Positions 7,699 through 31,140 are shown, numbered from the stretch's first letter. The stretch is DNA of 32,000 nucleotides from an uncultured Desulfuromonas sp. (GCA_963676955.1 OY781461.1:1512225-1544224); one strand, 5' to 3'. The notes: a model not told the origin generated them from the letters alone. Translations and numbers: made by a program.

Positions 7699-7732
7699 AA
7701 CGGCTCCTTGATGATGACAAATGGCGCGGTGT

Positions 7733-8086: not shown

Positions 8087-8105
8087 GATTCCATCCTTTG
8101 CATGA

Positions 8106-10469: not shown

Positions 10470-10470
10470 G

Positions 10471-11634: not shown

Positions 11635-11995
11635 GATACTCCAAGGAGATGGATCCTGCTGTGCCCCATCTTTTTAGGAATGCACAATAGTTGCGCCGGA
11701 CCATGATTAATCTTGGTGCGTGAGTGGTGCGGCGGAGGTGCTGCTTTTGTTTATGTTTCATCTGCTTTGAGCCTGGGCAAAAGGATGATAACGTGACATC
11801 GACGCTGTCTGTGAGAGAACAGAAACGGATGTTTATCCTGGGCTTGTGTCAGCACGGCACGCCATAGTCCTTCTATGGCAACGACCTGTAACGCTCCTGA
11901 CGCGAAAAAGACCTAAAATAGTACCATGAAAGCTGATTGAGAACGCCGCCTAAGATGAGCCATTCATTAATACTGAAATTTTATGGAACTTCATT

Positions 11996-16150: not shown

Positions 16151-16858
16151 TTAGGCGGAGAGGCGATGTTGCTTCTTCCTTAGCGCCATAACCCCCATCA
16201 ATCCAAAGCTCAGAAGGGCAAATGTCGAAGGTTCCGGAACAACGGCACTTTGCTCTTCAACAAACCCCGAATAACTCACATAAGCCTGAGAATAATTATA
16301 AAAGCCGAATAGCCCGGTATTAAAATTCCCTGCAATATCAAAAATGGTTTCGTCGTCAATTGATATGATGGTACGTGCCGCGGAATAGTCGAGAGAGAAT
16401 TCGTAACTTTGGAGATCTCGCCATCCCAGGGAAGAAGAGTATGAACTGGCAAGGATCTCAAGATCGTTCCCTGTATGTCCCCACAGATTAATATCAGAGC
16501 CCGTGATTCGAGAAAGAGTGAAGCCTTCTAGTCCTGAGGTCTGATTGTTCTGCTTCCAGTCGAAAAGGAGATAGTCCTCTGAGCCATTAAAGCCAAAAAC
16601 AAAGCCGATGAAATCGTCATCGCTTGTTGTCTTTACAGTAAATGTCCCTTCAATCAAGCGATTAAAATAGTCAGTGTCACTGACAAAGTAAGTGGGTTGC
16701 CCATTGATGGTTTGCAGGACACTGTAGCCATCGTTACTCACGTTCCAGTTACCCCCTGGAGAGGCTGTCCAATTTTGTAAATTAATTGCCAGGGCAAATG
16801 CCATGGACGGCAAAGAAAAGATCATTACTACAAGGGGGAGCATGACGATTTTTCTCAT
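16151..16858 (-). CDS. PEP-CTERM-anchored secreted protein with a LamG/concanavalin-like domain
   Basis: It has a signal peptide (MRKIVMLPLVVMIFSLPSMAFA). The C-terminal sorting signal is VPEPSTFALLSFGLMGVMALRKKQ (PEP motif, TM helix, basic tail). The DDDFIGFVFGF segment is typical of TSP-type LamG folds. Confidence 0.8.
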   Translation of the reverse strand: MRKIVMLPLVVMIFSLPSMAFALAINLQNWTASPGGNWNVSNDGYSVLQTINGQPTYFVSDTDYFNRLIEGTFTVKTTSDDDFIGFVFGFNGSEDYLLFDWKQNNQTSGLEGFTLSRITGSDINLWGHTGNDLEILASSYSSSLGWRDLQSYEFSLDYSAARTIISIDDETIFDIAGNFNTGLFGFYNYSQAYVSYSGFVEEQSAVVPEPSTFALLSFGLMGVMALRKKQHRLSA

Positions 16859-16896
16859 TTTTTATCTCGTCTCAAAAAGAAGGTTAATAAAAAAAG

Positions 16897-17499
16897 CTAG
16901 TTTTGAGCCTTTTTAAGTACAACCAGCCCTAATAGGCCAATGGCAAGCAATATCAGAGTGGTAGGCTCAGGCACTGGCTGTGTTGCGGATTCGGCTACTG
17001 TACCTGTTAACGACCAGGAAAGCAGATCTGTTCCATCTCCAGGCCAGTAGGTATCCAAAAGCACAAGTGTCCATTCTCCAGCAAGACTTAACCCGTTGAA
17101 AACCGAGAGGGAGTCCAGTGCCTGAAAGGTCCCTTCAGCATTGACGGATGTGAAGTCATAGGAGATCAGAGAAGATGCAGCATCGTCAAAAACAACATCA
17201 AAAATGCCTTCAAAAAAATTAATTCCACCTGATGGCGCGAGAGAAACGCCGACACCATTGTGCTCAAGCCAGATGCTCACGTCTTTCCAAAATGTTTTTC
17301 CAGAGCTTTCATCTCCCAGTTCAATCTGAACATTGAGATCCGTTATTAAACCATTTAATTCTGAAGTAAGGGAAACGTAGGTTGCCGGATAGGTGTCGAT
17401 GTTGCCGGTAGCGTCGCCATCGAGAGTAAAAGACATTGCTCCGGCTGTCGTTGCCGTCAAGCCGAGTAAAACAATGCAGGTGACAAAAAGGGGTTTCAT
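16897..17499 (-). CDS. PEP-CTERM-anchored secreted protein with a proprotein-convertase P-domain-like module
   Basis: The start is taken at the internal ATG 17499 (MKPLFVTCIVLLGL...), with an AAGGAA RBS. ITDLNVQIEL...SIWLEHNGVGVSL...LAGEWTLVLLDTYWPGDGTDLLSWSL resembles a P-domain. The C-terminus is VPEPTTLILLAIGLLGLVVLKKAQN. Confidence 0.75.
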   Translation of the reverse strand: MKPLFVTCIVLLGLTATTAGAMSFTLDGDATGNIDTYPATYVSLTSELNGLITDLNVQIELGDESSGKTFWKDVSIWLEHNGVGVSLAPSGGINFFEGIFDVVFDDAASSLISYDFTSVNAEGTFQALDSLSVFNGLSLAGEWTLVLLDTYWPGDGTDLLSWSLTGTVAESATQPVPEPTTLILLAIGLLGLVVLKKAQN

Positions 17500-17836
17500 G
17501 GCTTTTCCTTTCTCGAGCAGGTTCTTCAGTAAGCACAAAATTCAAATCAAAAAAAGACTTTGAGTATAGCGCGATATTTCCCACAAAAAATAGACACTAC
17601 ATAAACTCAGGTTAACTGTAAATATAAAATTAATATAGGTGAATATTGGAATGGTAAAAATGTCAGTGAAAACAGTTGGTTGATAACGGGATAAAATTTC
17701 TAAAAGGTTAAAGTCCTCAAAGTCTAATCTTGACTATGTTTTTGCACATGAATAAATTTTATTGACAGCGGTAAAAACGAGCTGCTAGCCTTCGAGGACA
17801 TTTTGACTTAAAAATGTTTTCATCAAGGAGGCGGAT

Positions 17837-20800
17837 ATGCCCGTTCTGCGTTATTTTCTCTGTACGGTTCTTTTGGTTTTAATCTTTTCAGCTCAGGTCC
17901 TTGCTGTTGATTGCTCGACAGGTGGAGGGGTTTCAACCATCGGCATAGAATATGTTCCTGATACTTGTCCGCCATATGGAGACAATGAAGTCACCCATTT
18001 CATCGACACGATGCTGACATGTAGCGGTGGCAAGGTAACTCTTTATGCTCCTTACGGAGATACCATGGCTACACCGGCCGGCATTGCCGCCTATGCCGCC
18101 TCCAATAACTATCGGGTGATGTGGAACAAAGACAACGGCCACATTGTTATGGTACATCGCTATTTTCGCGGCACTATTGACGGTGTTTCCATGACGAGTG
18201 TCCCTTCTGGAACCATCAACACCGAAGGTTTTGATCAAATTTTCATGCCAAATGCTTTTCCCGATGCGGATGGCAATGGCAATCCGGATTGCGCAGATAA
18301 TGGAGATGCCCCTGAGGCAGAAAAAGAACCGGAGCCGGTCATTGGTGCGTGTGAAGTCGGCAATAGATTTCTCGGATCCCAAGTCAATGTCGCCAGCGGC
18401 AATCTCTCTTTGACACAATCCCTGTTTTCTGAAGCAGAAACCGGATTGCCCGGAGGGCTTTACTTCAGCTGGAATAGTCTGGGGAATGGCTGGCAGTTGA
18501 ATCAGGATGTCCATTACGAACCCACTTGGGCTCCTGCTCCCGGCATCACGTATACCTGCACTGAAAGTGTTTCGAGTTGGACTGCTATCTTGAGCAGTGA
18601 TAAAAACAACGACAACGGTGTCGTTTATCCGATTAAGTGGACTGAAACCGGAACGGATTTGCCGGCCGGCAGTTGCTCAACCGCGGATGCTCCCTATATT
18701 CGCGTTCGTCAGGCCGATGGTGGGTATCTGTATTTTTCCGACACGTCAAGCGGCAGCGATCTTGCCTCGGTCAACGGCTCGTATGCCACCTGGTCGACTG
18801 AAGATCACAGCGTTACCTATCGTAATGGCACGCAATTGACCTTTAATGACGACGGGAGGATTCTTGAGCGCCGCGACCGTAACGGCCTTGTTGCCCAGTA
18901 CGATTATACCGACGACCAGTTGCAAAGCATCACTGATCGCTTCGGTCGTACCACCGTGTTCAGTCATGACGGCGACGGACACATCACCACCATCACCGCT
19001 CCGGATGGCCGTAGCGTCAGCTTGACCTACAGTGACGGGCTGATCGCTTCAATGACCACCAGCGATGGTCGCACCTGGAATTATGCCTACAGTGATGGCC
19101 GTCTGACGCAAATCAGTGATCCCGCCGGGAACGAAAAGAGTTATGCTTACGACAGCAGCGGTCGGGTTGTGCAGGGTACCACTCCGGACGGCACACGCAC
19201 CATCAGCTACGACGACTCCACCAATGAGAGCGTCATCACTGACCGCGACGGCAGCCAGACCATCCACGGCTATGACGCTGATCAACGTACGCCGGTCTAC
19301 ACCATTGACGCCCAGGGCGGAGAAACCCTGTACACGTACAACAGCCGCAACCAACTGACGTCCACCAGCGATCAGGAGTTGCGCACCCGCACCTCCACCT
19401 ACAGCACCCAAGGCGATCTGCTCACTGAAACCGATGCCGCCGGCATTACTACCAGCTACACCTACAACAGCAACGGCGATGTGACTGCCGTCACCGATGC
19501 CATGGGGAACACCACTCAGATCGCCTACGATGCCAACGGCAATCCCATAACCGTCACCTTGGCCAACGGTCTGCAGATTATCAACACCTACAACGGTCTT
19601 GGCCAACTCGTCAGTCGCCAGGATGTCAACGGCGGCGTGACCGGCTATACCTACGATGCGAACGGTTTTCCCGCCCAAGCCATCGCAGCCGACGGCGGCA
19701 TCACCACCTACAGTTTTGACAATGGCGGTCGCCTGCTTAGCGAAACCGATGCCGGCGGATACGTTACCAGTTACACCTATGACAATGCTGGTCGCCTGGC
19801 CGGCAAAACCACTCCCGACGGCGACACCACCAGTTACGGATACAACGTTTTGGGACACCTCACCAGCGTCCTTCACCCCGACGGAACCACGACCAGTTTG
19901 ACCTATGACCATGCCGGTCGTCTGCTCAGCCTTACCGACGGCGCCGGGCGTAGTACACAGTATCAATACAACAACCTCGGTCAGAGAATCGTCAGTACCG
20001 ACGGCAACAGCAACAGCACTGATTACACCAGCAACTTCATGGACCAGCTCACCCGTATCACCGACCCGCTCGGCACGGTTACCGATCTGGTGTATCAGGA
20101 CGACGGTCTCAGCCTGGCCGAGGTGATTGACGGCCGCGGCAACAGCCTGACCTACAGTTACGACAGTGCCGGGCGCCTTATCCAAACCAACCAACACGGC
20201 GTCATCACCAGCTACACCTATAACAGCCTGGGGCAACTGGCAACGCGAACCGACGCCCGTGGTATCGTCACCGAATACAGTTACGACAGCCTCGGTCGTT
20301 TGACCCAGCTTCACTTTCCAGCCGACAGCAGTCAGGATGTTCTTTACGGCTACGATGCCGGTACCTGGGGTGGTGGCCAGCTGACCAGCATGCAAGATGC
20401 CGGTGGCAGCCACAGCTACGCTTACGACAGCCTGGGTCGTCTCGTCAGTCACACCTATACGTTACAAAACACGGCTTACACCACCGACTATAGCTACGAT
20501 GCCACCGGCAACCTGGTCACTCTCAGTTATCCCGGCGGGTTCGCTGTGACAACCAGCTATGACGGCAACCATCGTCCCTTGAGCATACAGGCTGAACTGG
20601 GCGACCAAACCCTGGATATTCTGACCCAGATCAGCTACGACACCAATGGCCGCCCCGTCCAATGGCAACATGGCAACGGTTTGCTCACCAGCGCCGGCTA
20701 CGATGGCGGCGGTTTGCTGCAGAGTCTGACCCTGTCTTCGCATCTGGCGGAAGCATACAACCGAGACGGCGCCGGTCAGCTCACCGCCCTGACACGTACC

Positions 20801-22318
20801 GTGCCGACCACCGGTCAGGACACCTATCAATACGATGTTGTTGGCCAATTGATCTCCGCCGACAAAAACAGCATCCTACGCACCTACAGCTACGACCCGG
20901 TCGGCAACCGCCTTACCCTCAATGAAGATGGCGAGATCGACACGTCCACCCTGGCCACGGACAGCAATCAGCTACTCGCCGTCAGCGGCGTCAACGCCGA
21001 AAGCCGCCTTTACGACATCCAGGGCAACAGCCTGCAACTGTCCACGCCGTTGTTCGACGATCTGCAGTTGACCTACAACCAGAGTGGTCGTCTGAAATCT
21101 CTCAGCAACAGTGGCACAGTCAGCGACTATCTCTACGACGGCAACAACCTGCGCGTGGTCAAAGACAGTGATGGTGTCATCACCCACTACCATTACGACC
21201 TCCAGGGCCGCCTGCTCGCTGAAACCGACAGTGACGGCACTCTGCAACGCGCTGTGGTCTGGTATGGAGATACCCCGGCAGCTCTCATTGACGTCGAGCA
21301 GTCCGAGCCGACCTTCTTCACCTGCACCACCACGGAATCGTATACTGGCGCCGCAGGTCCCGGCATGACCCTCGACACTGTTACTCACACGGTCGTTATT
21401 GAGAGTGGAGACTATGCCGGCACCTATGTCATCAGCGATGAGAACTGGCAGGTTTATTCTTCAGGAATCGTGTTCATCTGGAGTGATGAGAGTTTTCAGA
21501 TTCAAGGTGGATTCGCACCCGATTATGAACTGCCCACGCGCAGCGGCGGTCTGGTTTTTTATCAAAAGAACGACGAAGGTAACTTCGAGATCGCCGATTT
21601 ATACAAACTGTGGAAAGAAAGCGAAAGCGGCGGCAGTGCCATCGCCACCCCGTACCAGGTCCACACCGACCAGATCGGCGCTCCAGTGCTGCTCACCGAC
21701 GCCACAGGCACGGCCGTCTGGTCCGCACAGTATGCCCCCTTCGGTCAGGCCACAATCAACAGCGATGTCGACGGTGACGGCACCGAAGTCGTGTGCAACC
21801 TGCGCTTCCCCGGTCAGTACTCTGACGCAGAATCCGGTCTGCATTACAATTGGCATCGCTACTATGAGCCACGGTCTGGGCGGTATATTACCTTGGATCC
21901 GATTGGCTTGGATGGTGGGATTAATCTTTATGCTTATGTCCAAAACAATCCTGTCAATTCCATTGATCAAGCAGGGTTAGTTCGGGAAGGAGCCAATTGC
22001 CCAAATAACTCGAATTGCGTACAAGATTGCCTTGAGAGAGAGTATGGTGATACCTACACATGGGCTGCCAGCCTTAGTTATATAAGCATACCCTCTGCAG
22101 TCTATGAGTTGTATAGCAATGAGGTTTCAATGGCTTTAAAGAGATCTGCAACATCTAAGCTTTACTCTGATACAGCATACAGGGCTGGGAAGCGGCAAAT
22201 GAAAACCTTGGCTCAATTTTCCAGATTTAACAATATGATGCTCGTGGCAGGCGTTGGTGCAACTTCGTTTCAAGTCACTGCATATATTTATTGCCAAGTG
22301 AGCTGTGCACTAAAATGA
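17837..22318 (+). CDS. Rhs/YD-repeat polymorphic toxin with an N-terminal Sec signal peptide and a unique C-terminal toxin domain (CT1, 21980-22315)
   Basis: An AAGGAGG RBS lies upstream and the signal peptide is MPVLRYFLCTVLLVLIFSAQVLA. Dozens of YD repeats are present (YTYDANG, YSYDSLGRL, YAYDSSGRV and others). The Rhs core is PYQVHTDQIGAPVLLTDATGTAVWSAQYAPFGQ...RFPGQYSDAESGLHYNWHRYYEPRSGRYITLDPIGLDGGINLYAYVQNNPVNSIDQAGL. A 112-aa AT-rich tail follows. Confidence 0.95.
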   Translation: MPVLRYFLCTVLLVLIFSAQVLAVDCSTGGGVSTIGIEYVPDTCPPYGDNEVTHFIDTMLTCSGGKVTLYAPYGDTMATPAGIAAYAASNNYRVMWNKDNGHIVMVHRYFRGTIDGVSMTSVPSGTINTEGFDQIFMPNAFPDADGNGNPDCADNGDAPEAEKEPEPVIGACEVGNRFLGSQVNVASGNLSLTQSLFSEAETGLPGGLYFSWNSLGNGWQLNQDVHYEPTWAPAPGITYTCTESVSSWTAILSSDKNNDNGVVYPIKWTETGTDLPAGSCSTADAPYIRVRQADGGYLYFSDTSSGSDLASVNGSYATWSTEDHSVTYRNGTQLTFNDDGRILERRDRNGLVAQYDYTDDQLQSITDRFGRTTVFSHDGDGHITTITAPDGRSVSLTYSDGLIASMTTSDGRTWNYAYSDGRLTQISDPAGNEKSYAYDSSGRVVQGTTPDGTRTISYDDSTNESVITDRDGSQTIHGYDADQRTPVYTIDAQGGETLYTYNSRNQLTSTSDQELRTRTSTYSTQGDLLTETDAAGITTSYTYNSNGDVTAVTDAMGNTTQIAYDANGNPITVTLANGLQIINTYNGLGQLVSRQDVNGGVTGYTYDANGFPAQAIAADGGITTYSFDNGGRLLSETDAGGYVTSYTYDNAGRLAGKTTPDGDTTSYGYNVLGHLTSVLHPDGTTTSLTYDHAGRLLSLTDGAGRSTQYQYNNLGQRIVSTDGNSNSTDYTSNFMDQLTRITDPLGTVTDLVYQDDGLSLAEVIDGRGNSLTYSYDSAGRLIQTNQHGVITSYTYNSLGQLATRTDARGIVTEYSYDSLGRLTQLHFPADSSQDVLYGYDAGTWGGGQLTSMQDAGGSHSYAYDSLGRLVSHTYTLQNTAYTTDYSYDATGNLVTLSYPGGFAVTTSYDGNHRPLSIQAELGDQTLDILTQISYDTNGRPVQWQHGNGLLTSAGYDGGGLLQSLTLSSHLAEAYNRDGAGQLTALTRTVPTTGQDTYQYDVVGQLISADKNSILRTYSYDPVGNRLTLNEDGEIDTSTLATDSNQLLAVSGVNAESRLYDIQGNSLQLSTPLFDDLQLTYNQSGRLKSLSNSGTVSDYLYDGNNLRVVKDSDGVITHYHYDLQGRLLAETDSDGTLQRAVVWYGDTPAALIDVEQSEPTFFTCTTTESYTGAAGPGMTLDTVTHTVVIESGDYAGTYVISDENWQVYSSGIVFIWSDESFQIQGGFAPDYELPTRSGGLVFYQKNDEGNFEIADLYKLWKESESGGSAIATPYQVHTDQIGAPVLLTDATGTAVWSAQYAPFGQATINSDVDGDGTEVVCNLRFPGQYSDAESGLHYNWHRYYEPRSGRYITLDPIGLDGGINLYAYVQNNPVNSIDQAGLVREGANCPNNSNCVQDCLEREYGDTYTWAASLSYISIPSAVYELYSNEVSMALKRSATSKLYSDTAYRAGKRQMKTLAQFSRFNNMMLVAGVGATSFQVTAYIYCQVSCALK
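21053..21979 (+). repeat. Master copy of the Rhs core-encoding segment, repeated (nested 5' truncations) at ~22528-22899, ~23505-24342 and 24980-~25333
   Basis: Long stretches of near-identical DNA are visible by eye. For example, TTCGACGATCTGCAGTTGACCTACAACCAGAGTGGTCG occurs at 21053 and 24980, and GGTCTGCATTACAATTGGCATCGCTACTATGAG occurs in three copies. Confidence 0.9.
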
Positions 22319-22491
22319 AGAATATTTTTTTGAGAACATTCGCCGCACTGTTGGGAGTTTTTCTGGTTGTTGCAGGAATATGGAAATTCTTTGACCCAGT
22401 CTATGGCAGCCTTGTGGAGAAAGGGAGCTGTGTCTCGGCGTTATTATTTGGAATAATTTTTTTGAGGTTCTCTATTGCCGGTTTCCGGTAG
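22315..22491 (+). CDS. Putative immunity protein for CT1 (58 aa, two TM helices)
   Basis: Its ATG overlaps the Rhs stop (ATGA at 22315-22318). The product is MKNIFLRTFAALLGVFLVVAGIW...SALLFGIIFLRFSIAGFR. Its position is canonical for an Rhs immunity gene. Confidence 0.6.
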   Translation: MKNIFLRTFAALLGVFLVVAGIWKFFDPVYGSLVEKGSCVSALLFGIIFLRFSIAGFR

Positions 22492-22515
22492 ATACGGTTA
22501 CAAATTTGTATCCTG

Positions 22516-23226
22516 TTGACAGCGAGTGTGTGGAGACAGAGCGTACGTGGCAGTAGCACCGTCGCCACCCCGTACCACGTTCACACCGACCAGATCGGCG
22601 CCCCAGTGCTGCTCACGGGTAGCACTGGCACGGCCGTCTGGTCTGCCCAGTATGCCCCCTTCAGCCAAGCCACAATCAACAGCGATGTCGATGGTGACGG
22701 CACCGATGTCGTGTGCAACCTGCGCTTCCCCGGCCAGTACTTTGACGCGGAATCCGGTCTGCATTACAATTGGCATCGCTACTATGAGTCACGGTCTGAG
22801 CGGTATATTACCTTGGATCCGATTGGTTTGGCTGGGGGGATTAATCTTTATGCTTATGTCCAAAATGATCCAGTTAACTGGATTGATCCCAACGGTTTAG
22901 AAGCAATTGCTGCCCCATGGGGATGGGTATGGGATGTCGGTGGAACTCTTGGCAAGTGCAACCCGATTGGTCTCGCAACCTCCATAGTTTTGGGTATGCC
23001 ATCTTCAACATCAACATGTTCAGATTATCCGCAGCCCGATGGGTGTAAAGATGACGATGATGGACATTGCGAAAAGATCTACAAAACAGATACTGATACC
23101 TGTAATGGGATCAGTCGTGTGCGAGGAGCGAGTGCGGGGGCGGCTTGCCACGCCTCCGCTACTGAACGTTATGCTGCTTGTTTACGTGGAAAACCTTTAC
23201 CTCCATTAAATACTTGGAATAATTGA
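22516..23226 (+). CDS. Orphan Rhs C-terminal cassette 1: 5'-truncated core fragment plus a distinct toxin domain (CT2, 22900-23223)
   Basis: Homology to the main rhs starts at about 22528 (ATPYHVHTDQIGAPVLL...). The core ends with NDPVNWIDPNGL. A Cys-rich 108-aa tail follows. It has no RBS or ATG of its own. Confidence 0.85.
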   Translation: MTASVWRQSVRGSSTVATPYHVHTDQIGAPVLLTGSTGTAVWSAQYAPFSQATINSDVDGDGTDVVCNLRFPGQYFDAESGLHYNWHRYYESRSERYITLDPIGLAGGINLYAYVQNDPVNWIDPNGLEAIAAPWGWVWDVGGTLGKCNPIGLATSIVLGMPSSTSTCSDYPQPDGCKDDDDGHCEKIYKTDTDTCNGISRVRGASAGAACHASATERYAACLRGKPLPPLNTWNN

Positions 23227-23228
23227 CT

Positions 23229-23450
23229 ATGAATTTAAACGATTTTGCTCACATTGTTGAGATTGATGAAAAGGAAAGGCTGCTTACTATTTACCGTGTT
23301 CAGGGAGAAGAGCGCCATCTTTATACATCAATTTCATTGCCAGATAAGTCCTGGGATGAAAGCCCAGACGATATCAAGGAATTTTGTCAAAAACTTGGAG
23401 AGAATATTATTATCGATTCGCCAATAGCGAGAAAACTTTTTGGAATATAG
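23229..23450 (+). CDS. Putative immunity protein for CT2 (73 aa, soluble, acidic)
   Basis: It starts 2 nt after the stop of the orphan cassette. The product is MNLNDFAHIVEIDEKERLLTIYRVQGEERHLYTSISLPDKSWDESPDDIKEF... and has no TM segment. Confidence 0.55.
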   Translation: MNLNDFAHIVEIDEKERLLTIYRVQGEERHLYTSISLPDKSWDESPDDIKEFCQKLGENIIIDSPIARKLFGI

Positions 23451-23520
23451 GTTTTAAAAGAAATAGTGAGAGAAGCCGAACTCAAAAGAACATTATGGCA
23501 GCCGGAACAACAACCTGCGC

Positions 23521-24741
23521 GTGGTCAAAGACAATGACGGTGTCGTCACTCACTACCATTACGACCTCCAGGGCCGTTTGCTCGCTGAAACCGACAGCGA
23601 CGGTACCTTACGTCGTGCCGTGGTCTGGTATGGAGATACCCCGGCAGCTCTCATTGACATCGAGCCGTCCGAGCCGACCTTCTTCACCTGCACCACCACG
23701 GAATCCCTCACCGGCGCCGCAGGCCCCGGCATGACCCTTGACACTGTCACTCACACAGTCGTTATTGAGAGTGGAGACTATGCCGGCACCTACGCCATCA
23801 GCGATGAGAACTGGCAGGTCTATTCTTCAGGAATCGTGTTCATCTGGAGTGATGAGAGTTTTCAGATTCAAGGTGGATTCGCACCCGATTATGAACTGCC
23901 CACACGTAGCGGTGGTCTGGTCTTTTATCAGAAGGACGACGAAGGTAACTTCGAGATCTCCGATTTATACAAACTGTGGAAAGAAAGCGAAAGCGGCGCC
24001 ATCGCCACCCCGTACCAGGTCCACACCGACCAGATTGGTGCCCCGATTTTGCTCACCGACGCCACAGGCACGGCCGTCTGGTCCGCACAGTATGCCCCCT
24101 TCGGTCAGGCCACAATCAACAGCGATGTCGACGGTGACGGCACTGAGGTCATCTGCAACCTGCGCTTCCCCGGGCAGTACTTTGACGCGGAATCCGGTCT
24201 GCATTACAATTGGCATCGCTACTATGAGCCACGGTCGGGGCGGTATATTACCTTGGATCCGATTGGCTTGGCTGGGGGAGATGTGAATTTTTATCGATAT
24301 GTGGGTGGAAATCCGATTAATCGGATTGATCCTACGGGGTTTGCTTGGAATGCCTCTTTTGGCTCGGGTGGCGCAGGTAATATTTTAGCTCCCGGAGTAA
24401 CGGCGGATTCTGGAATCGCTGTGGATTCAAATGGCACCATTTGCTTCTACTCAACCATATGTTATGTCGTAGGGTGGAATTCTCTAAGCGGTGGAGGGCT
24501 TGGTCTTGTTGGCTCAGTTGGTTCTGGAACCCTCTGTAGTGGCAAATCAAAATCTGCAGGAGCTTATTATTTCGGAGGTTCTGGATTGGGGGGAGAAGCG
24601 CAGATGCTAATAGGAGAAGGTGGATTGAGCTTTTCTCGTGCTTTAGGAGGAATTGCCGCAGGAGCAGGATCCGGATATATAGAGTGTGAAACAGAATACT
24701 TCTGCATCAATGAATCTGATGAATGTGGTTGTGATGAATAA
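23521..24741 (+). CDS. Orphan Rhs C-terminal cassette 2: longer core fragment plus a Gly-rich toxin domain (CT3, 24343-24738)
   Basis: Homology to the main rhs starts at about 23505 (NNLRVVKDNDGVVTHYHYDLQGRLL...). The core ends with GGNPINRIDPTGF. A 132-aa glycine-rich tail follows. No ATG start is present; the track start is a GTG inside the homology. Confidence 0.85.
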   Translation: MVKDNDGVVTHYHYDLQGRLLAETDSDGTLRRAVVWYGDTPAALIDIEPSEPTFFTCTTTESLTGAAGPGMTLDTVTHTVVIESGDYAGTYAISDENWQVYSSGIVFIWSDESFQIQGGFAPDYELPTRSGGLVFYQKDDEGNFEISDLYKLWKESESGAIATPYQVHTDQIGAPILLTDATGTAVWSAQYAPFGQATINSDVDGDGTEVICNLRFPGQYFDAESGLHYNWHRYYEPRSGRYITLDPIGLAGGDVNFYRYVGGNPINRIDPTGFAWNASFGSGGAGNILAPGVTADSGIAVDSNGTICFYSTICYVVGWNSLSGGGLGLVGSVGSGTLCSGKSKSAGAYYFGGSGLGGEAQMLIGEGGLSFSRALGGIAAGAGSGYIECETEYFCINESDECGCDE

Positions 24742-24931
24742 ACCTTTTTTTAAAAATAAACCCTTAGAGGTTCCATTGTTTATTGGAATTGTGTGTCTAT
24801 TCTGTGCCTTCGGTGGTTTTGCTCTTGCCTGTTGGGGACATGTTGAGCTTGCGCAATTCATTGTATTTCCATCTATCTTGTTAGGTCTGGTTTCATTGGC
24901 TGTTTTTTTTCTGATAAAGCTTAAACAGTAA
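24734..24931 (+). CDS. Putative immunity protein for CT3 (65 aa, two TM helices)
   Basis: The ATG at 24734 overlaps the cassette stop (24739-24741) by 8 nt. The product is MNKPFFKNKPLEVPLFIGIVCLFCAFGGFALACWG...FPSILLGLVSLAVFFLIKLKQ. Confidence 0.6.
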   Translation: MNKPFFKNKPLEVPLFIGIVCLFCAFGGFALACWGHVELAQFIVFPSILLGLVSLAVFFLIKLKQ

Positions 24932-24979
24932 GGTGTAGCCATTTAGGAGATAAATCCCTATGGGCGAAAAGAGGAGCTA

Positions 24980-25333
24980 TTCGACGATCTGCAGTTGACC
25001 TACAACCAGAGTGGTCGCCTGAAATCTCTCAGCAACAGTGGCACAGTCAGCGACTATCTCTACGACGGCAACAACCTGCGCGTGGTCAAAGACAATGACG
25101 GTGTCGTCACCCACTACCACTACGACCTCCAGGGCCGCCTGCTCGCTGAAACCGACAGTGACGGTACCTTGCGTCGTGCCGTGGTCTGGTATGGCGACAC
25201 CCCGGCCGCTCTCATTGACATCGAGCAGTCCGAGCCGACCTTCTTCACCTGCACCACCACGGAATCGTATACTGGCGCCGCAGGCCCAAGTATGACCATC
25301 TAAACCCTTACCACACTGTCGTCATCGAAGAGA
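24980..25333 (+). pseudogene. Orphan Rhs core fragment 3, truncated at both ends, with no CT or immunity gene
   Basis: It matches the main rhs from 21053 onward (LTYNQSGRLKSLSNSGTVSDYLYDGNNLRVVKD...). It acquires a stop at 25301-25303. Residual DNA similarity fades at about 25333. Confidence 0.8.
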
Positions 25334-25340
25334 GGTCGGT

Positions 25341-25760
25341 GGCTAGCGCGCAGGCCTCGACAGTTTTAGGTTGACTTGTCTGTTTGCGCCTCTTTCGTTC
25401 GGCGGTGCCTAAATAGTTTTACCTTCGCAGTTTTACCAACTTTGCCTCATCAAACTGTGCATGCGATTTTTCCTCACATGGCTTTGCGATGTTCTTCACC
25501 GCAAGGCATGCGCTCTCTTCCTGACTGCTAATGTGGGCACTTTTCATAACCCGTATTTCTCATACAGATTCCTATTGCCAAATAGGGCGTATCCCTCTTT
25601 TCGATTTCTGACCTTATGTCTTTGCTCAGGTGAGTGCGTAATCGTTGCCCGACATGTTTTCGAACGTGCTGGAGGCTTTTACTGCAATTACGATACTGAA
25701 AATAACCAACCCTCTAACGGTGGCGTTGACTTCGTTGACCACCTTCTCCAATGGCAGGAG
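25341..25760 (-). mobile_element. Decayed, 5'-truncated group II intron remnant (maturase X-domain/C-terminus plus a degenerate domain V)
   Basis: Minus-strand translations are collinear with the intact IEP. LPLEKVVNEVNATVRG (25745-25710) matches LAKVIHDLNPVLRG. NTGYEK matches QLGYQGE. FDEAKLVKL (25454-25428) matches WFAKQGLFDL. About 86 nt further on, TCGAGGCCTGCGCGC matches the domain V segment ACGAGGCCCGTACGC. The spacing mirrors the intact copy. Several stops and frameshifts are present. Confidence 0.5.
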
Positions 25761-26234
25761 CTGTCATGCCATGGCCGGACGTGAGGTGGCAACACAGAAT
25801 TTTTAAACGTTTGCGGTCAGCACGGCGATGCTACTCGGTGAAATGGTGGTGAGGGAAAATAGGGATGTGCAAGAGGTGATCGAGAATCTGGGTTTATGAA
25901 CAATCTCCCCTCTCCGGTCTGGCGTCTGCCCAGACTGAGCTAGGGAAAAGACCGAAAACGAAGCTGTTATGGCCATGATCGTCTTTGTTTGCGCAGAAAC
26001 TGACTGTCTTTTTTGTCAGGCTTGTCGATGCTTCCATCGGCCTCAAGATCGTAAAAATTAATAGTATATCATATAATTATATTATTTGTAGCATTGCAAA
26101 AGTTACGGTTATTATCATCAAATCTGACTGTCGATTCCAGGCCACTGGCGGCAGAAAGTTTTTTTTCATTTGTTTTTTTAGAGTTTGATTCTAAGTTAGA
26201 TTAGATAGTTTTCGAATAACCCTGTTGATCGGAG

Positions 26235-27509
26235 ATGAAAATGGGTCATGAACGCTGCAATGATCGTGTAAGCCGGAAACGGAATTCCTCCCCGCCTTCC
26301 TCGTGTGACGGTATCCGTTTGCCGCTTTACAAGGGTCCGTTCCAGAACAACGGCGCATCCCCTTGGTATCTGGAGTTGCCGGTCGGTACGCCCAAAGAAG
26401 GAACAAAGCCGCAGCGGCTGAAGTTTTCCCTGGATACGGGCAGCAACTTCGTCTGGGTGACCTCGACCCTGTGCGGTGCGCAGGGCTGCCAACATTATGG
26501 CGGTAAGCAGTTCAATTACGATGACTCGTCCAGTTTTCATTGGTGTTCGCAACAAACGATCCCTGTCGATTTCGGCCCCTGGGGTACCATGCAGGTTGAG
26601 ACCGGTCAGGATGTGCTGGCCCTGGATCAGCAGACGGCAACGACCAGCGAGATCTATCTGGCCGAAGCTTACAGCGGCGATCAGTTCGCGGAGCTCGACT
26701 GGGACGGCGGCATCGGTGTGCCGAGCAGTTATTCCACGGAACTGCATGCGACCAGTCGCACCTTTATTCGCGGAATCCGGCGGAGCCTGACGCAGGGCGC
26801 CAACGAAAAATGCGCCGACGCGGATTTTGCGTTTTTTCAGAACCTGATGAATCAGGGACGCGTCAGTCCCGACCAGCCGTTTCTTGCCTTTGACACCGAT
26901 CCGCAAACCAAAACGGGAACGGTTGCGCTGGGGGCGCTCGATTCGGCTTATCAGGACAGCCTGGAATACCTGTATCTGCCGTTCACCGTCTATCCGACCA
27001 TTACCTATGTCTGGACCTCGGCGCTGAAATCGCTTCGCGTGGGCGAGAAAACGTTGGCGACCGATATGTATTTCTGCCTCGATACCGGCTCGTCGCAATT
27101 CAAGGGCGATGTCGCCGTCATGCAGGAAGCCTTTGCACTGACCGACGGTAAACAGAGCAATCCGCTGGTGACCATCGAGTTGGCACAGCAAGGGGATGAT
27201 ACGCCGGGCACGCTGGTGATTCCCGCCGAAGTTTACAAGGTGGAAATCGAAGCGGGCGACAAAAGCGGGCAAATCATCAGTCAATTCGAGCCGATGGCCG
27301 GGGTGGACAAGCTGATCCTGGCGGGTTCCGTGCTGCTGGATTACCTCTACACAGTCTACGAGTACGAGGTCGCTTGTGAGCCGGATGGCAGCTATCGACT
27401 CTCGGCCAAGGGGATGTGGCTGTTCAACAAGAAGAACGGGTTGAAGATCATTCAAAACACGCAAAGCCAACCGGCGCGGATTTTCGCCGGTGTCGCGGAG
27501 GGGGACTGA
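26235..27509 (+). CDS. Pepsin-family (MEROPS A1-like) aspartic protease with no signal peptide
   Basis: It has two catalytic DTGS motifs: FSLDTGSNFVWV (Asp codon 26433-26435) and FCLDTGSSQF (Asp codon 27081-27083). Other pepsin-like segments are WYLELPVGTP, CGAQGC, DGGIGV and the C-terminal ILAGSVLLDYLYTVYEY. The start may instead be ATG 26241 (GGAG at 26231-26234). Confidence 0.85.
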   Translation: MKMGHERCNDRVSRKRNSSPPSSCDGIRLPLYKGPFQNNGASPWYLELPVGTPKEGTKPQRLKFSLDTGSNFVWVTSTLCGAQGCQHYGGKQFNYDDSSSFHWCSQQTIPVDFGPWGTMQVETGQDVLALDQQTATTSEIYLAEAYSGDQFAELDWDGGIGVPSSYSTELHATSRTFIRGIRRSLTQGANEKCADADFAFFQNLMNQGRVSPDQPFLAFDTDPQTKTGTVALGALDSAYQDSLEYLYLPFTVYPTITYVWTSALKSLRVGEKTLATDMYFCLDTGSSQFKGDVAVMQEAFALTDGKQSNPLVTIELAQQGDDTPGTLVIPAEVYKVEIEAGDKSGQIISQFEPMAGVDKLILAGSVLLDYLYTVYEYEVACEPDGSYRLSAKGMWLFNKKNGLKIIQNTQSQPARIFAGVAEGD

Positions 27510-28291
27510 TGGCTGTAGACCTGAACGGGCGCTGGGAAAACAATTTCGGCTCTTTTCTCAATCTCAAGGTGGATGCTCAGGGTGTTATCACCGGCGTTTA
27601 CGGTTCGGACACCGGTTCTTCCGGCACCTATTATCTGGTCGGTGCCGCCGGGCTGAACGCACCTACCGAGCAGGCTGGACGGAATCTGGCCGTCTCGGTG
27701 TTCTGGCATCCGGTTGACGGCACAAAAAGCGATCCCTCCTGGCATTGGGTCACCACGCAATGCGGCCAGTTGCAGATCGACGGCACGATCAGCTTATTCC
27801 AATCGTTGGTGGCAACCACCGATTTTCCCGGTTTGGCGGGAATCGGCAATTATCTTGAAAAATTGACCTGCAGCACAACCGACAAAGGGCCGACCACGCC
27901 TATCCCCGCAGCGCCGTCTCCCGACGATCCGCAACAGGAGGATCCGCTCAACGGCCAGTGGCAGGCGAGCTACGGCGGACCGGGATTGTCGCTGTCGGTA
28001 AAAAAATCCGATTACGGCTGGCTGTGCGGCCGTTTGAGTCTCGACGGCGAAGCTATCCTGATGCGCGGGTTTGCCGATATTCATGCTGATGACACGATGT
28101 TGCGGGGCGTCACTCTGAGCGGTTATTCCAGTGCTCGCGGGGCGGCGATCGCGCTCAACGGCAGTCTCGATCCTTCCACCGGTCGGCTTACCCTGAGTCG
28201 TTGGTTTGCTCTTTCGACATCGAGCGCCGATGGCTATGTGCAGACCGATCTGGGAAGTTGGGTCTTTGAGCCTGACACAACAGATCGTTAA
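27509..28291 (+). CDS. Tandem avidin/streptavidin-fold protein with no signal peptide
   Basis: Its ATG overlaps the protease stop (TGATG, 27507-27511), with GGAGGGGG upstream. Domain 1 aligns with streptavidin strands: [46 protein letters not shown] and [9 protein letters not shown]. A Pro-rich linker follows, then a divergent second copy ([11 protein letters not shown]...). Confidence 0.7.
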   Translation: [260 protein letters not shown]

Positions 28292-28330
28292 AAGGTCCGC
28301 TTTATTATTCTCCAATCCGGGAAAGCCACT

Positions 28331-31126
28331 ATGGACTTCAGTGCCGCCTTTGAACAGGTCAAACACGACGATATGATTTTGCAGAGCTTTATGCATCTCT
28401 GGCAATATTCGGCCGACCTGATGTTTATCATGGCGGTCGAGGAGGATGGCGAGTTTACCCTCTACGACAACAACCCGGCATCAAGGGCGGTGTGCGGTAT
28501 TGCCGAGGATGCAAATATCCATCGCCTGAATCTTCGTAACATCTGGGACGACGAGGTGGTGGAGGGGCTTTATGAAAGCTATCGCAAGGCGATTGCGGCG
28601 CGCAAGCCGATCACCGTCGAGCAGGAAGCGAACGATCCCGACGGCGCAACTGTTTATGTCAGCACCCTGCTGGTCCCTCTGTTCGACGCGCAGGGCGAAC
28701 CGAAACTGATCTGCGGGGTTTCCCGTAATATCACCGACATAAAAAATGCCGAAAAACTGGCCGTGCGTGCGCAGGGTGAATTGACGCAATCGAACGCGGC
28801 CTTGCAGCAGATCAACCGCGAGCTGGACGAGCAGGTCGAAATCCGCACCGCGGAGTTGAGGGCGTCCAAACTCAAGGCTGAAGAAGCGACCCGGGCCAAA
28901 TCCGATTTTCTCGCCAAGATGAGCCATGAAATCCGCACACCGATGAATGCGGTGATCGGTTTGACGCGACTGGCGTTAAAGACCGACCTTGACCGCCGGC
29001 AGAAGGACTATCTCGATAAGGTTCTGGATGCCGCCGAGGGGCTGTTGGTCCTGATTAACGACATCCTCGATTTTTCCAAAATCGAAGCTGGAAAATTCAC
29101 CATCGAACAAAAACCTTTCCGTTTGGAACACGTGGTCGGCAAAGCAGTCAGCCTTTGTGCCATGAATATTTACAACAAGGGGTTGGAGCTGGTCACTGAT
29201 ATCGCTGCGGAGATTCCGACCCAGTTGCAGGGAGATGAACTCAGGATCCGCCAGGTTCTGGTGAACCTGTTGAATAATGCGGCGAAATTCACCGACGAAG
29301 GTGGCGTCTGCCTGAAAATTCGCGTACGTGAAGAGACGCCGCGGCAGATTCGTCTGCTTTGCTCCGTTATCGACACCGGTATCGGCATGAGCCGCGAGCA
29401 GCAGGGGAAAATCTTCGGCTCCTTTACCCAGGCCGACGAATCCGTCACCCGCAAATACGGTGGTACCGGGCTGGGACTGGCAATTTCACGACAGCTTTGC
29501 GAATTGATGGGCGGAGAGATCTGGCTGGAAAGTGAGTTGGGCAAAGGCACCCGTTTTCACTTTACCCTGCAGCTCGATAAAGTGGCGACTCAGGCAGCAG
29601 GGCAGAAGAGAGAGGAAGGCACGCTGGCGGGGCTTAACGTGCTGGTGGTCGATGACAGCGACATGGCACGAAACGTTCTGGTCAGGATGCTGCACGATTG
29701 TGGTATCAAAACTGCTGAGGCGAGTAACGGGGCCGATGCTGTTGCCATCGTCAACCGGGAGCAACAGGACGGAGTTCTCTTTGACCTTGTCCTGCTCGAC
29801 GGGTGCATGCCCGGTATGAACGGCATCGAGACGGCCGTCATGATCCATCAGGCCCAGCAGGAAAAAGCGCCGCAAATCCTGATGGTCTCCGCCTATGATC
29901 GGGATGAGGTTCTCGGACGGCTTGATCAACAAATCGTCGGACAGGTGCTGGAAAAACCGGTTAACTCATCGGCCTTGTTGGATGCGCTCAAACGGGCCGT
30001 GACCGGAGTCGATGCAGCGGCAGCTTATTCCACCGGCCGCTATTCTGAAGCCGCCGAGCAGGCAAGCGCCCCGGATTTGTCCGCATCACGTATTCTGCTG
30101 GTAGACGACGGCCCTATCAATCGTCAGATCGCCCTTGGTTTTTTGCGGGACACCGGGGCCATTGTGGAGACGGCGAACAACGGCTTGCGGGCGTTGGAAA
30201 AACTGGCGCAAACCGACTACGATCTGGTGCTGATGGATATTCAGATGCCCGAGATGGACGGTCTGACGGCTGTTCGGCAAATACGAACCCGGTTGGGAAA
30301 GCCCGAATTGCCGGTGATCGCCATGACCGCGCAGGCCATGGCCGAAGATGTCGATGCAAGCCTTCAGGCCGGCATGAACGAACATCTGACCAAGCCGATT
30401 GTCCCGGAAACCTTGTACCGTGTCCTGGCAAAATACCTGCCGGAGCAACCGCGACCGATTCGTGGCGAAGCAGCGCCGGAAGAGCCCTTCGACGAGGACA
30501 TATCGTCTTCCACCGGCCCGGTGCGCACCCTCGAACAGCTGGAAACGGTTGCGGGAATCGATAGCGTTGTCGGTATCGGCAACCTCGGCAATGAGGAACT
30601 CTACCTGCCGGTCGTCAATGCTTTCATTGAGAAGTATCAGGGATTTGCCGATAAGTGTAACGCCTGGTTCGAGGCCTCGGATTGGCAGATGCTACAGTGC
30701 GAAAGTCATTCCCTGAAGTCGAATGCCGCCTATATCGGTGCACCGGAACTCTCTGTGTTGGGGGAAACCCTGGAGAAGAAGTTTGCAAGCGGTGTTATCG
30801 ACCGCGATCTTGTGTTCGAGGTCTGTAGGAAATTATCCGATTTGCTGGCACAATTCGATCTCAGCGAGAAAAAAGAACAGCCGGTCGATTCACCGGTCTT
30901 TTCCAGCGAACGGCTGACGCACACGTTGGCCGCGATCCTGCCGTTACTCGAACGTTCCGATTTTGCCGTGGAGGAGCTTTTGCCGCCTTTGCGGCGGTTA
31001 TGCGCCAATACGCCTTATGCCGAGGCTGTCGAGCGGATCATTGCCGATGTAAATGAGCTGGAGTACGAACGCGCCGCCGTTTTTGCGGCCGGTATGCTGG
31101 ATAAACTGTCCCCGGCGGAAAAGTGA
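28331..31126 (+). CDS. Hybrid sensor histidine kinase (PAS, coiled coil, HisKA, HATPase, REC, REC, Hpt)
   Basis: The H-box is FLAKMSHEIRTPMNAVIG. The N, G1 and G2 boxes are LVNLLNNAAKF, DTGIGM and GGTGLGLAISR. The two receivers are LVVDDSDMARN...LLDGCMPGMNG and LLVDDGPINRQ...LMDIQMPEMDG...LTKP. The C-terminal Hpt-like segment is QCESHSLKSNAAYIGA. Confidence 0.9.
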   Translation: MDFSAAFEQVKHDDMILQSFMHLWQYSADLMFIMAVEEDGEFTLYDNNPASRAVCGIAEDANIHRLNLRNIWDDEVVEGLYESYRKAIAARKPITVEQEANDPDGATVYVSTLLVPLFDAQGEPKLICGVSRNITDIKNAEKLAVRAQGELTQSNAALQQINRELDEQVEIRTAELRASKLKAEEATRAKSDFLAKMSHEIRTPMNAVIGLTRLALKTDLDRRQKDYLDKVLDAAEGLLVLINDILDFSKIEAGKFTIEQKPFRLEHVVGKAVSLCAMNIYNKGLELVTDIAAEIPTQLQGDELRIRQVLVNLLNNAAKFTDEGGVCLKIRVREETPRQIRLLCSVIDTGIGMSREQQGKIFGSFTQADESVTRKYGGTGLGLAISRQLCELMGGEIWLESELGKGTRFHFTLQLDKVATQAAGQKREEGTLAGLNVLVVDDSDMARNVLVRMLHDCGIKTAEASNGADAVAIVNREQQDGVLFDLVLLDGCMPGMNGIETAVMIHQAQQEKAPQILMVSAYDRDEVLGRLDQQIVGQVLEKPVNSSALLDALKRAVTGVDAAAAYSTGRYSEAAEQASAPDLSASRILLVDDGPINRQIALGFLRDTGAIVETANNGLRALEKLAQTDYDLVLMDIQMPEMDGLTAVRQIRTRLGKPELPVIAMTAQAMAEDVDASLQAGMNEHLTKPIVPETLYRVLAKYLPEQPRPIRGEAAPEEPFDEDISSSTGPVRTLEQLETVAGIDSVVGIGNLGNEELYLPVVNAFIEKYQGFADKCNAWFEASDWQMLQCESHSLKSNAAYIGAPELSVLGETLEKKFASGVIDRDLVFEVCRKLSDLLAQFDLSEKKEQPVDSPVFSSERLTHTLAAILPLLERSDFAVEELLPPLRRLCANTPYAEAVERIIADVNELEYERAAVFAAGMLDKLSPAEK

Positions 31127-31140
31127 TTTCCCGTATGTGC

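Follow-up and report, generated by a model that had tools for sequence, protein, structure and literature searches.

A predicted Sec-exported Rhs toxin locus of Desulfuromonas with a separable N-terminal domain and an array of orphan toxin tips

Known Sec-type toxins and the Desulfuromonas locus

The described toxins closest to the locus analyzed here belong to the "T2SS/Sec-dependent" class of Zhang et al. 2012 (PMC3482391, Table 1), named after the type II secretion system (T2SS), which is characterized by a signal peptide and no signature neighborhood genes (entered as "-") and has RHS among its repeats. Lineage-specific N-terminal domains behind the signal peptide were proposed, from comparative data alone, to be surface anchors, and the T2SS was the default proposal for crossing the outer membrane (PMC3482391); the class was defined by comparative genomics, and the outer-membrane step in diderms was not worked out. 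We analyzed a 32,000-nucleotide (nt) stretch of DNA from an uncultured Desulfuromonas sp. (GCA_963676955.1 OY781461.1:1512225-1544224; hereafter the window), in which positions 17837 to 25333 hold an rhs gene for a 1493-residue (aa) protein followed by three orphan core fragments. We think it probable that this locus encodes a Sec-exported Rhs polymorphic toxin, independent of type VI secretion systems (T6SS) and provided with a reserve of orphan toxin tips, in a species close to Desulfuromonas acetoxidans. The locus has a signal peptide (recognized by eye), no signature neighbors, RHS repeats, and a post-signal domain, and thus every defining trait of the Sec/T2SS class, for which T2SS dependence is only presumed. 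Because that class was catalogued in 2012, the system is not categorically new. What is new is an undescribed accessory domain at the N-terminus (the N-domain), either fused to the Rhs protein or split from it, together with an insertion in the shell; the orphan array and toxin switching are not new, orphan arrays being a textbook feature of such loci.

Comparison with individual systems places the window protein between several of them. It shares with the RHS members of the Sec/T2SS class a variable C-terminal toxin (CT), a downstream immunity gene, and a domain following the signal peptide (MafB-N, the Microscilla N-domain, and APD1/2 being others of this kind), but its own N-domain is not listed there, has no Pfam or NCBIfam model, and also exists as a separate gene beside Rhs genes. 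Bacterial teneurin-like proteins (Raoelijaona et al. 2026, Nat Commun 17:2753) are also Sec-targeted toxins with a shell of tyrosine-aspartate (YD) repeats, polymorphic C-termini, and immunity genes; they occur in Thermodesulfobacteriota as well, and have been discussed as lacking a known delivery machinery (PMC13018210). The window protein differs from them in having no TIP, TTR, FN-plug, or NHL propeller by Pfam, in being ~700 aa shorter, and in a shell closer to those of the T6SS type. With the T6SS Rhs effectors (those of E. coli, Salmonella Typhimurium LT2, and Dickeya, and Tse5, RhsP, and Tse15) it has in common a complete YD shell, a core autoprotease, CT/immunity pairs, nested orphan rhs-CT/rhsI modules open to recombination with it, and a C-terminus that is displaced from strain to strain, but a predicted cleavable signal peptide stands in place of the PAAR/VgrG-binding prefix and no vgrG or chaperone gene lies beside the locus. 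WapA of Bacillus subtilis and Streptococcus suis likewise combines a Sec signal, Rhs/YD repeats, a C-terminal toxin, and an immunity gene, and its action is contact-dependent and T6SS-independent. WapA, however, belongs to monoderms and carries cell-wall-binding repeats, whereas the window protein has an outer membrane to cross or to sit on and has an unrelated N-terminal domain: its closest relative, D. acetoxidans, is Gram-negative, and the N-domain has no wall-binding-repeat match. The MafA/MafB system of pathogenic Neisseria combines a Sec-signal polymorphic toxin and orphan CT/immunity arrays with a small exported accessory protein encoded directly upstream, like the split N-domain and Rhs pairs described below; MafB differs in having no YD shell, and MafA is a lipoprotein adhesin whose sequence is unrelated to the N-domain. 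As for the partners of Tc (ABC) cocoons, neither a TcB/SpvB beta-propeller nor TcA was found in the protein or the window.

The anatomy of the main gene and its upstream signals is as follows.

17730-17758, 5′ of rhs: sigma-70-like TTGACT-17-TAAATT, a consensus match only
17825-17831, + strand: Shine-Dalgarno AAGGAGG, 5 nt before the rhs ATG
17837-22318, + strand: main rhs gene, 1493 aa; complete YD-repeat shell with N-terminal signal peptide and putative C-terminal toxin
17837-17905, + strand: putative Sec signal peptide (aa 1-23), signal peptidase I (SPase I) cleavage predicted after VLA, no lipobox; sequence read by eye
17906-18256, + strand: N-domain (aa 24-140), rare, cysteine-containing, beta-rich
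18257-18352, + strand: acidic linker (aa 141-172), DADGNGNPDCADNGDAPEAEKEPEPV, of low predicted local distance difference test score (pLDDT)
18353-21271, + strand: DUF6531-type plug and YD-repeat shell (aa 173-1145)
21272-21652, + strand: all-beta insertion of ~125 aa (aa 1146-1272), between the last YD repeat and the RHS core
21653-21979, + strand: RHS-associated core with autoprotease motif (aa 1273-1381), DPIGL...18 aa...DQAGL; PF03527, TIGR03696
21980-22318, + strand: putative main C-terminal toxin, 112 aa, 5 Cys, so named from its position after the core

Pfam found 15 copies of RHS_repeat PF05593 (E 3e-100), teneurin-type YD-shell segments, and PF03527 (E 1e-10) in the protein, and NCBIfam added TIGR03696 Rhs_assc_core (E 3e-25) and 12 copies of TIGR01643. 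Its best matches in a PDB sequence search were complete Rhs shells, namely Tse15 (E 1e-62), RhsP (3e-59), and Salmonella bongori Rhs (7e-56), with teneurin-like proteins at 3e-33 and TccC/YenC much weaker (~1e-10 to 2e-16); TccC is matched by the RHS core only (E 1e-10 to 2e-16). No PAAR, prePAAR, VgrG-like, DUF4150, or MIX match was returned by either Pfam or NCBIfam. The N-terminus, MPVLRYFLCTVLLVLIFSAQVLA followed after the predicted cut by VDC, has the form of a Sec/SPase I signal, its single Arg preceding a hydrophobic core of 15 aa and then VLA, with no lipobox, as judged by eye rather than by a predictor.

These results agree with much of what the original prediction had described from this DNA. 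The open reading frame (ORF), the strong Shine-Dalgarno sequence, the leader (by eye), and the Pfam and NCBIfam matches all support a 1493-aa Rhs protein with a classical signal peptide, and the lack of PAAR, VgrG, or DUF4150 matches supports its remark that no T6SS-type prefix is present. That no secretion-system genes are in view was borne out by a Pfam scan of the 28 larger ORFs of the window, which gave no T6SS, TcA/TcB, Eag, or two-partner secretion (TPS) family. The statement that the first ~330 aa are unfamiliar held for a distinct domain of ~117 aa; the remainder is the 32-aa acidic linker and then an ordinary DUF6531-type Rhs plug. What did not hold was its implication that a Sec-type Rhs protein without partner genes is an unrecognized situation, given the 2012 class (PMC3482391) and the discussion of the teneurin-like proteins (PMC13018210). 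The delivery route, which the prediction called open, is not shown to be new.

The N-domain family and the shell insertion

The N-domain, which the original prediction had not noticed, is a conserved and separable family whose members are either joined to Sec-type Rhs proteins or specified by a gene just upstream. Nothing was found by a word-indexed protein search that took the N-terminal 327 aa as its query; the relatives came from an exhaustive HMMER search of 1.84 billion representatives, which yielded homologues in 73 clusters (two of them spurious repeat proteins), always at the N-terminus. A hidden Markov model of the domain recognized three of 79 Rhs loci (78 from a genome collection plus the window), namely the window, L001, and L004. 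Among the 32 longer family members, 20 have DUF6531 and 19 have RHS repeats by Pfam, and the DUF6531 plug, which starts at about residue 173 of the main protein and is weak there (E 0.18), is clear in those 20. Residues C26, E38, C62, and P80 are invariant in the family alignment and C44 nearly so, and the conserved cysteines probably form disulfide bonds. A confident AlphaFold (AF2) model built from a 42-sequence alignment (pLDDT 89.4, predicted template-modeling score (pTM) 0.80) consists mostly of beta-strands with one helix. Foldseek found no relative of this fold, the best PDB match having E 0.5 and a template-modeling (TM) score of at most 0.21, the best viral model E 0.08, and no match overall exceeding TM 0.25; nor did Pfam or NCBIfam match the sequence. 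The linker DADGNGNPDCADNGDAPEAEKEPEPV is a degenerate form of the DxDGDGxxxCxDCDD (MopE/TSP3-like) motif, and such motifs occupy the same position in relatives, one of which (P0007) matches PF11617 there with E 1.5e-37.

Two features of the family bear on where the domain works. In 59 of the 64 members with a recognizable domain start, the first conserved Cys comes only a few residues after the end of a hydrophobic leader, and about 16 of the 64 show a lipobox-like triad by a crude pattern. A lipoprotein anchor was considered for the main Rhs protein and ruled out, its leader having no lipobox. Four short members (192-228 aa) were traced to contigs (L089, L090, L091, and L093). In L089, 73 nt separate an N-domain gene of 228 aa from a downstream Rhs gene, which has a signal peptide of its own, MILKRVSTSILLFCCVMVNSGEVLG, running into the DUF6531 plug; in L093, an N-domain gene of 215 aa is followed after 4 nt by another signal-peptide Rhs gene; and in L090, Rhs fragments lie 1 kb downstream of the stand-alone N-domain gene. 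The lineages of L089 and L093 are distant, because their Rhs proteins share only 39% identity. That the domain is fused in some lineages and an adjacent gene in others, each with its own export signal, suggests that it acts together with the shell outside the cytoplasm, and this fused and split distribution argues, as Rosetta-stone evidence read from sequence, for a functional link between the N-domain and Sec-type Rhs proteins. We also observed a 372-aa protein (P0005, L080:79-1197) with a signal peptide and the N-domain but no Rhs or other Pfam domain, so the N-domain is not strictly limited to Rhs toxins.

The ~125-aa shell insertion was found only in the Desulfuromonas clade, and is also present whole in orphan 2 and partly in orphan 3. 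Its AF2 model is all-beta, with a pLDDT of 60 overall and 76-87 in the core; a fold search gave no significant match, and the non-significant lipocalin/avidin-like matches were not used. Other inserts occur at the same point of the shell, FN3-like in P0007 and dockerin-like in P0025 (both recognized by eye), and the insertion loop may be a display site on the shell.

Toxin tips, immunity candidates, and the orphan array

The main gene is followed by an array of cassettes that repeat parts of its core, and by small ORFs whose starts overlap or adjoin the end of each CT. Their position suggests an immunity role.

22315-22491, + strand: candidate immunity gene 1 (58 aa), with two hydrophobic helices and a start codon that overlaps the rhs stop as ATGA
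22529-23226, + strand: orphan 1, core fragment 22529-22899 and then a 108-aa Cys-rich putative CT, 22900-23226
23229-23450, + strand: candidate immunity gene 2, for a soluble 73-aa protein that lacks a signal peptide and any transmembrane segment; ATG 2 nt after the orphan 1 stop
23508-24741, + strand: orphan 2, core fragment 23508-24342 including the insertion domain and then a 132-aa putative CT, 24343-24741, 23% Gly, 7 Cys
24734-24931, + strand: candidate immunity gene 3, 65 aa, two hydrophobic helices; ATG overlaps the orphan 2 CT end by 8 nt
24980-25328, + strand: orphan 3, core-only remnant; in-frame TAA at 25301-25303, after which homology is lost; no CT or immunity gene

The three CTs are mutually unrelated and hold 5-7 Cys each. 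None has a usable Pfam match (E up to 10) or another detectable relative in the databases, and in the PDB the only matches were low-complexity chance matches to designed "Pizza" propellers; at the same Pfam threshold nothing usable was found for the immunity candidates or the insertion domain. The immunity candidates of the main gene and of orphan 2 are two-helix membrane proteins, which suggests that at least two of the three predicted toxins are directed at the envelope.

By BLASTN, the orphan 1 core (22529-22888) matches main-gene positions 21609-21968 at 88.3% (E 3e-132), the orphan 2 core (23508-24302) matches 21142-21939 at 91.6% (E 0), and orphan 3 (24980-25328) matches 21053-21402 at 91.7% (E 4e-143). 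The 5′ breakpoints are sharp in the nucleotide alignments, and 3′ homology stops near the core-closing DPxG motif; the main core ends at 21979, after DQAGL. The core closes with DPIGL...DQAGL in the main gene and with DPNGL and DPTGF in orphans 1 and 2, respectively, motifs from which autoproteolysis is predicted. The orphan frames open only at 22492, 23470, and 24947, and none of the three has an in-frame ATG with a Shine-Dalgarno sequence. No tRNA or Rfam feature lies inside the array. The original prediction had thus drawn the array correctly: ORFs and alignments confirm a main CT/immunity pair followed by two core-CT-immunity cassettes and one core-only fragment, its by-eye estimate of identity in roughly nine of ten positions compares with the computed 88.3-91.7%, its breakpoints (~21608, ~21140, and 21053) lie within 2 nt of those from BLASTN, and no orphan was found to have its own ribosome-binding site or ATG. 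The toxin switching that it gave as background is backed by the D. acetoxidans comparison below and by substitution patterns in the orphans.

Relative to the main gene, the ratio of nonsynonymous to synonymous divergence (dN/dS) is 0.22 for orphan 1, 0.13 for orphan 2, and 0.10 for orphan 3, with dS of 0.24-0.34, so that the differences are mostly synonymous. Orphan 2 is 95.1-95.6% identical to D. acetoxidans copies and 94.4% to its own main gene, and orphan 1 is 86-89% identical to every other copy. The synonymous bias and these copy identities indicate that the fragments diverged inside working rhs genes and were assembled later, and the array, as read from its sequence, fits the classical displacement picture (PMC4436062) rather than decay in situ. 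Recombination of orphans in Salmonella is cited in the same paper.

Replacement of the CT between sister species was observed in the comparison with D. acetoxidans. An exhaustive protein search identified a protein (P0001) with 94% aa identity over the first 353 aa, encoded on contig JADGIJ010000005 of GCA_015234255.1, which is D. acetoxidans from the "Chloropseudomonas ethylica" N3 mixture (PMC7762298, Table 1). Synteny of the window with this contig (L079) starts at the CBS/Na+-H+ exchanger genes, takes in both PEP-CTERM genes, and extends to main-gene position 21938, at 82-90% nt identity and ~90% within rhs itself. Past that position the CT of D. acetoxidans N3 is unrelated to that of the window, its immunity candidate is another one, predicted to have several membrane helices, and an orphan of its own follows, which over the final 234 nt of the contig shows 100% identity to the N3 main gene. 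The sequenced strains of D. acetoxidans all have 99.9% average nucleotide identity to one another (PMC7762298), which, set against the 82-90% found here, makes the window's source a related but different Desulfuromonas species. A Desulfuromonadaceae metagenome-assembled genome (L001) shows 69% aa identity over residues 1-1384 and the same architecture in an unrelated genomic context; its two orphans are 93% and 88% identical to its main gene, and one has a TseH-like CT with Imm58. A metagenome scan with a narrow alignment gave four loci from about two organisms.

Several further observations concern the array and its relatives. A sigma-70-like site, TTGACG-17-TACAAT, a consensus match only, scores 10/12 in both orphans 1 and 2 (22742-22770 and 24182-24210). 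The same site reads CTGACG in the main gene (21822-21850), scores 9/12, and lies upstream of the CT/immunity pair like the orphan copies. The sites arise from codons of the conserved motif FDAESGLHYNW and could drive expression of the orphan immunity genes. The ~900 nt after orphan 3 (25330-26230) hold no convincing ORF, Rfam match, or tRNA, and may be the scar of a break in the array. A near-conspecific contig (L084, ERZ21878363 ctg4147l) shares 96.7% identity with window positions 27675-32000 over 4.3 kb. Just beyond the point corresponding to window position 32000, at L084:4326-8751, it holds a further three Rhs core fragments together with CTs and immunity-type ORFs (one being DUF4288), suggesting that the orphan array probably continues past the window, after the pepsin-like, avidin-like, histidine kinase, and GGDEF genes. 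A 728-kb long-read contig from a D. acetoxidans-like organism (L083:342-9873) carries an rhs gene 91% identical to that of the window that reads as frameshifted (possibly an assembly error), followed by IS200-type Y1, IS110-type, and DDE-type transposase genes and no orphan array.

Surroundings, delivery, and alternative explanations

The flanks of seven family loci (the window, L001, L004, L081, L082, L085, and L088) were compared with one another. They hold no conserved partner gene: an all-against-all comparison of their flanking ORFs gave no shared secretion-related gene, only generic signaling domains and a small HHH protein in two loci, and no vgrG, Eag/DUF1795, or DUF4123 gene and no linked outer-membrane translocator was found at any of the seven. 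This agrees with the "-" entered under neighborhood genes for the Sec/T2SS class in PMC3482391. The small HHH (ComEA-like) gene lies just upstream of rhs in L004 and L082 and is absent from the window. L004 (16898-18883) and L093 (1734-3947) share a secreted neighbor with bacterial TSP3 repeats and a Glce-type beta-sandwich, 28-35% identical and likewise absent from the window.

Directly upstream of rhs in the window and divergent from it are two PEP-CTERM proteins (16151-17538, - strand), one with a thrombospondin C-terminal (TSP_C) domain. The pair is kept beside rhs in D. acetoxidans and is absent from more distant family loci. Sorting of the Rhs protein by a PEP-CTERM/exosortase system was considered and rejected, the protein having no PEP-CTERM tail and the upstream genes being divergent, conserved only in the sister species, and absent from L001 and L004. 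Elsewhere in the window are the 3′ part of a group II intron (165-1520, + strand; an RVT_1 and GIIM maturase ORF, with Rfam Intron_gpII domain V/VI at 1448-1520), a hipA/hipB-type toxin-antitoxin pair (1987-3559, - strand; HipA_C with Couple_hipA, and HTH_3), of which hipA also occurs near the L004 Rhs locus, and a partner-switching cluster of the RsbU/STAS/anti-sigma type (6181-13507), which besides a STAS protein includes a HAMP-SpoIIE phosphatase that also bears an HATPase_c_2 kinase domain and another two HATPase_c_2 proteins, of which one is joined to a GNAT domain. The genes downstream of the array encode a pepsin-like aspartic protease (PF00026, E 5e-20) and, after it, an avidin-family protein (26235-28291, + strand), both from families uncommon in bacteria, and a hybrid histidine kinase. 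DUF2202 and MFS and Na+/H+ transporters make up the other Pfam content.

The reading that we favor, a Sec-exported and T6SS-independent toxin, would work as follows. The precursor would cross the inner membrane by Sec and lose its 23-aa signal peptide, the N-domain would fold in the periplasm, and the DUF6531 plug and YD repeats would close as a shell around the unfolded 112-aa C-terminal toxin, which the aspartyl autoprotease of the RHS core would then free within the shell. The 58-aa two-helix membrane protein, translationally coupled to rhs, would shield the producer. The downstream cassettes would be earlier or imported 3′ ends, each a core fragment with an alternative toxin and its cognate immunity; homologous recombination across the 0.35-0.8 kb of core that they share with the main gene could place them on that gene, while the orphan immunity genes might meanwhile guard against neighbors using those toxins. 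Passage of the outer membrane could follow the general type II pathway or vesicles, with lysis also possible; a Pul-type T2SS occurs in relatives (PMC3543383). The N-domain would be an accessory module of Sec-type Rhs toxins, most likely holding the shell on the producer surface or binding the target cell, although that it serves display or targeting specifically is a suggestion we make tentatively and that may well not hold. In a bolder form of this proposal, which we consider unlikely, the N-domain, exported by Sec within the toxin or as a subunit apart, would be the adaptor that defines a T6SS-independent route dedicated to ~160-kDa Rhs shells in diderms; it would dock the shell to a component of the producer's surface or outer membrane, or to a prey receptor, would be required for contact-dependent killing, and would be the counterpart of PAAR/VgrG or TcA for Sec-type Rhs toxins.

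One alternative is that the protein is T6SS cargo. Its hydrophobic N-terminus would then stay in place as a membrane segment, like that of prePAAR/Eag-dependent effectors, and a T6SS whose genes lie elsewhere would fire it. Nearly all characterized Gram-negative Rhs toxins are T6SS effectors, the closest solved shells are T6SS proteins, T6SS genes occur in relatives within the order, and the near-conspecific contig L084 has a DUF2235/Tle1-like hydrolase gene ~6.5 kb downstream of its further orphans. T6SS effectors are loaded onto the spike in the cytoplasm, and a cleavable signal peptide with a cysteine-stabilized domain right behind it gives a topology at odds with such loading. The leader is shaped as a cleavable signal, the domain with three conserved cysteines that follows it fits an oxidizing compartment, and the split loci have a signal peptide on both genes, which would be senseless for cytoplasmic loading; these points, with the missing T6SS-type domains and the missing T6SS genes at the seven loci, make the explanation very improbable. 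We give an even lower probability to the reading in which the protein is no interbacterial weapon but a component of a Tc/ABC-type or host-directed toxin, or else a bacterial adhesion protein of the teneurin-like kind. The core does match TccC/YenC and teneurin-like proteins (E 1e-10 to 3e-33), and Desulfuromonas lives in tight consortia with green sulfur bacteria (PMC7762298), but the protein and the window hold no TcA, TcB/SpvB, NHL propeller, TTR, or FN-plug, and the complete shell stands alone as in T6SS-type Rhs proteins, which it matches at 1e-62 as against 1e-33 for the teneurin-like ones. Moreover, the immunity-type ORF at each CT and the orphan cassettes form the self-protection signature of an antibacterial toxin (PMC4436062).

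Two other explanations leave the toxin system as described and alter only a part of it. The N-domain may be a folding cap or an oligomerization or regulatory module, with the shell staying periplasmic until released by lysis or vesicles. The lack of an outer-membrane translocator linked to any locus speaks for this, as do the difficulty of a ~160-kDa folded shell as a secretion substrate, the finding of MafB toxins, also of the Sec type, in vesicles (PMC4436062), and a fold that offers no functional hint; a separate secreted protein beside Rhs genes in distant lineages, however, resembles a working partner more than a passive cap, and Zhang et al. 2012 proposed surface anchoring, from comparative data alone, for analogous post-signal domains (PMC3482391). 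We regard such a role as an unlikely but serious possibility. The array, for its part, could be a fossil record of past C-terminal displacements, unexpressed and no longer used for switching or protection. Its orphans have no start codon or ribosome-binding site, orphan 3 is broken by a stop, and in the D. acetoxidans-like contig three transposase genes follow the locus and the main gene is apparently frameshifted. Yet the reading frames of orphans 1 and 2 run uninterrupted for 0.7 and 1.2 kb at 8-12% divergence, with intact, tightly coupled immunity ORFs, each of these two cores carries the promoter-like site (10/12) upstream of the immunity gene, and the CT on the main gene differs between sister genomes, so we find a purely fossil array decidedly unlikely.

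Some points weigh against our reading of a Sec-exported toxin with an N-domain partner. The signal peptide was called by eye. Neither a PDB sequence search nor a word-indexed protein search found a homologue of the main CT, so that its label as a toxin derives from its position, and the second autoprotease motif of the main gene is DQAGL and not DPxGL. Downstream of the stand-alone N-domain gene of L091, the contig runs on for 3.4 kb with no Rhs gene, and many short members of the family may be truncated by contig ends. The search for T6SS genes spans the 32-kb window and the family loci, and a distant T6SS is possible, Pelobacter carbinolicus and Geobacteraceae having T6SS. No recombinant junction was seen in this strain. 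From the sequence we infer secretion and export, signal cleavage, toxicity and immunity, recombination in this strain, how the outer membrane is crossed, and what the N-domain does.

The way in which Sec-exported YD-shell toxins get out of a Gram-negative producer and into a target cell is an acknowledged gap, and the 2026 paper on bacterial teneurin-like proteins still describes the delivery mechanism as to be elucidated (PMC13018210). The Desulfuromonas locus offers a handle on this gap, in the form of a small, well-folding domain that is fused to the toxin or encoded next to it and of an orthologous locus in cultured D. acetoxidans. If the N-domain is a display or targeting module, it would represent a second way of using Rhs toxins in diderms and would provide a sequence marker by which to find them.

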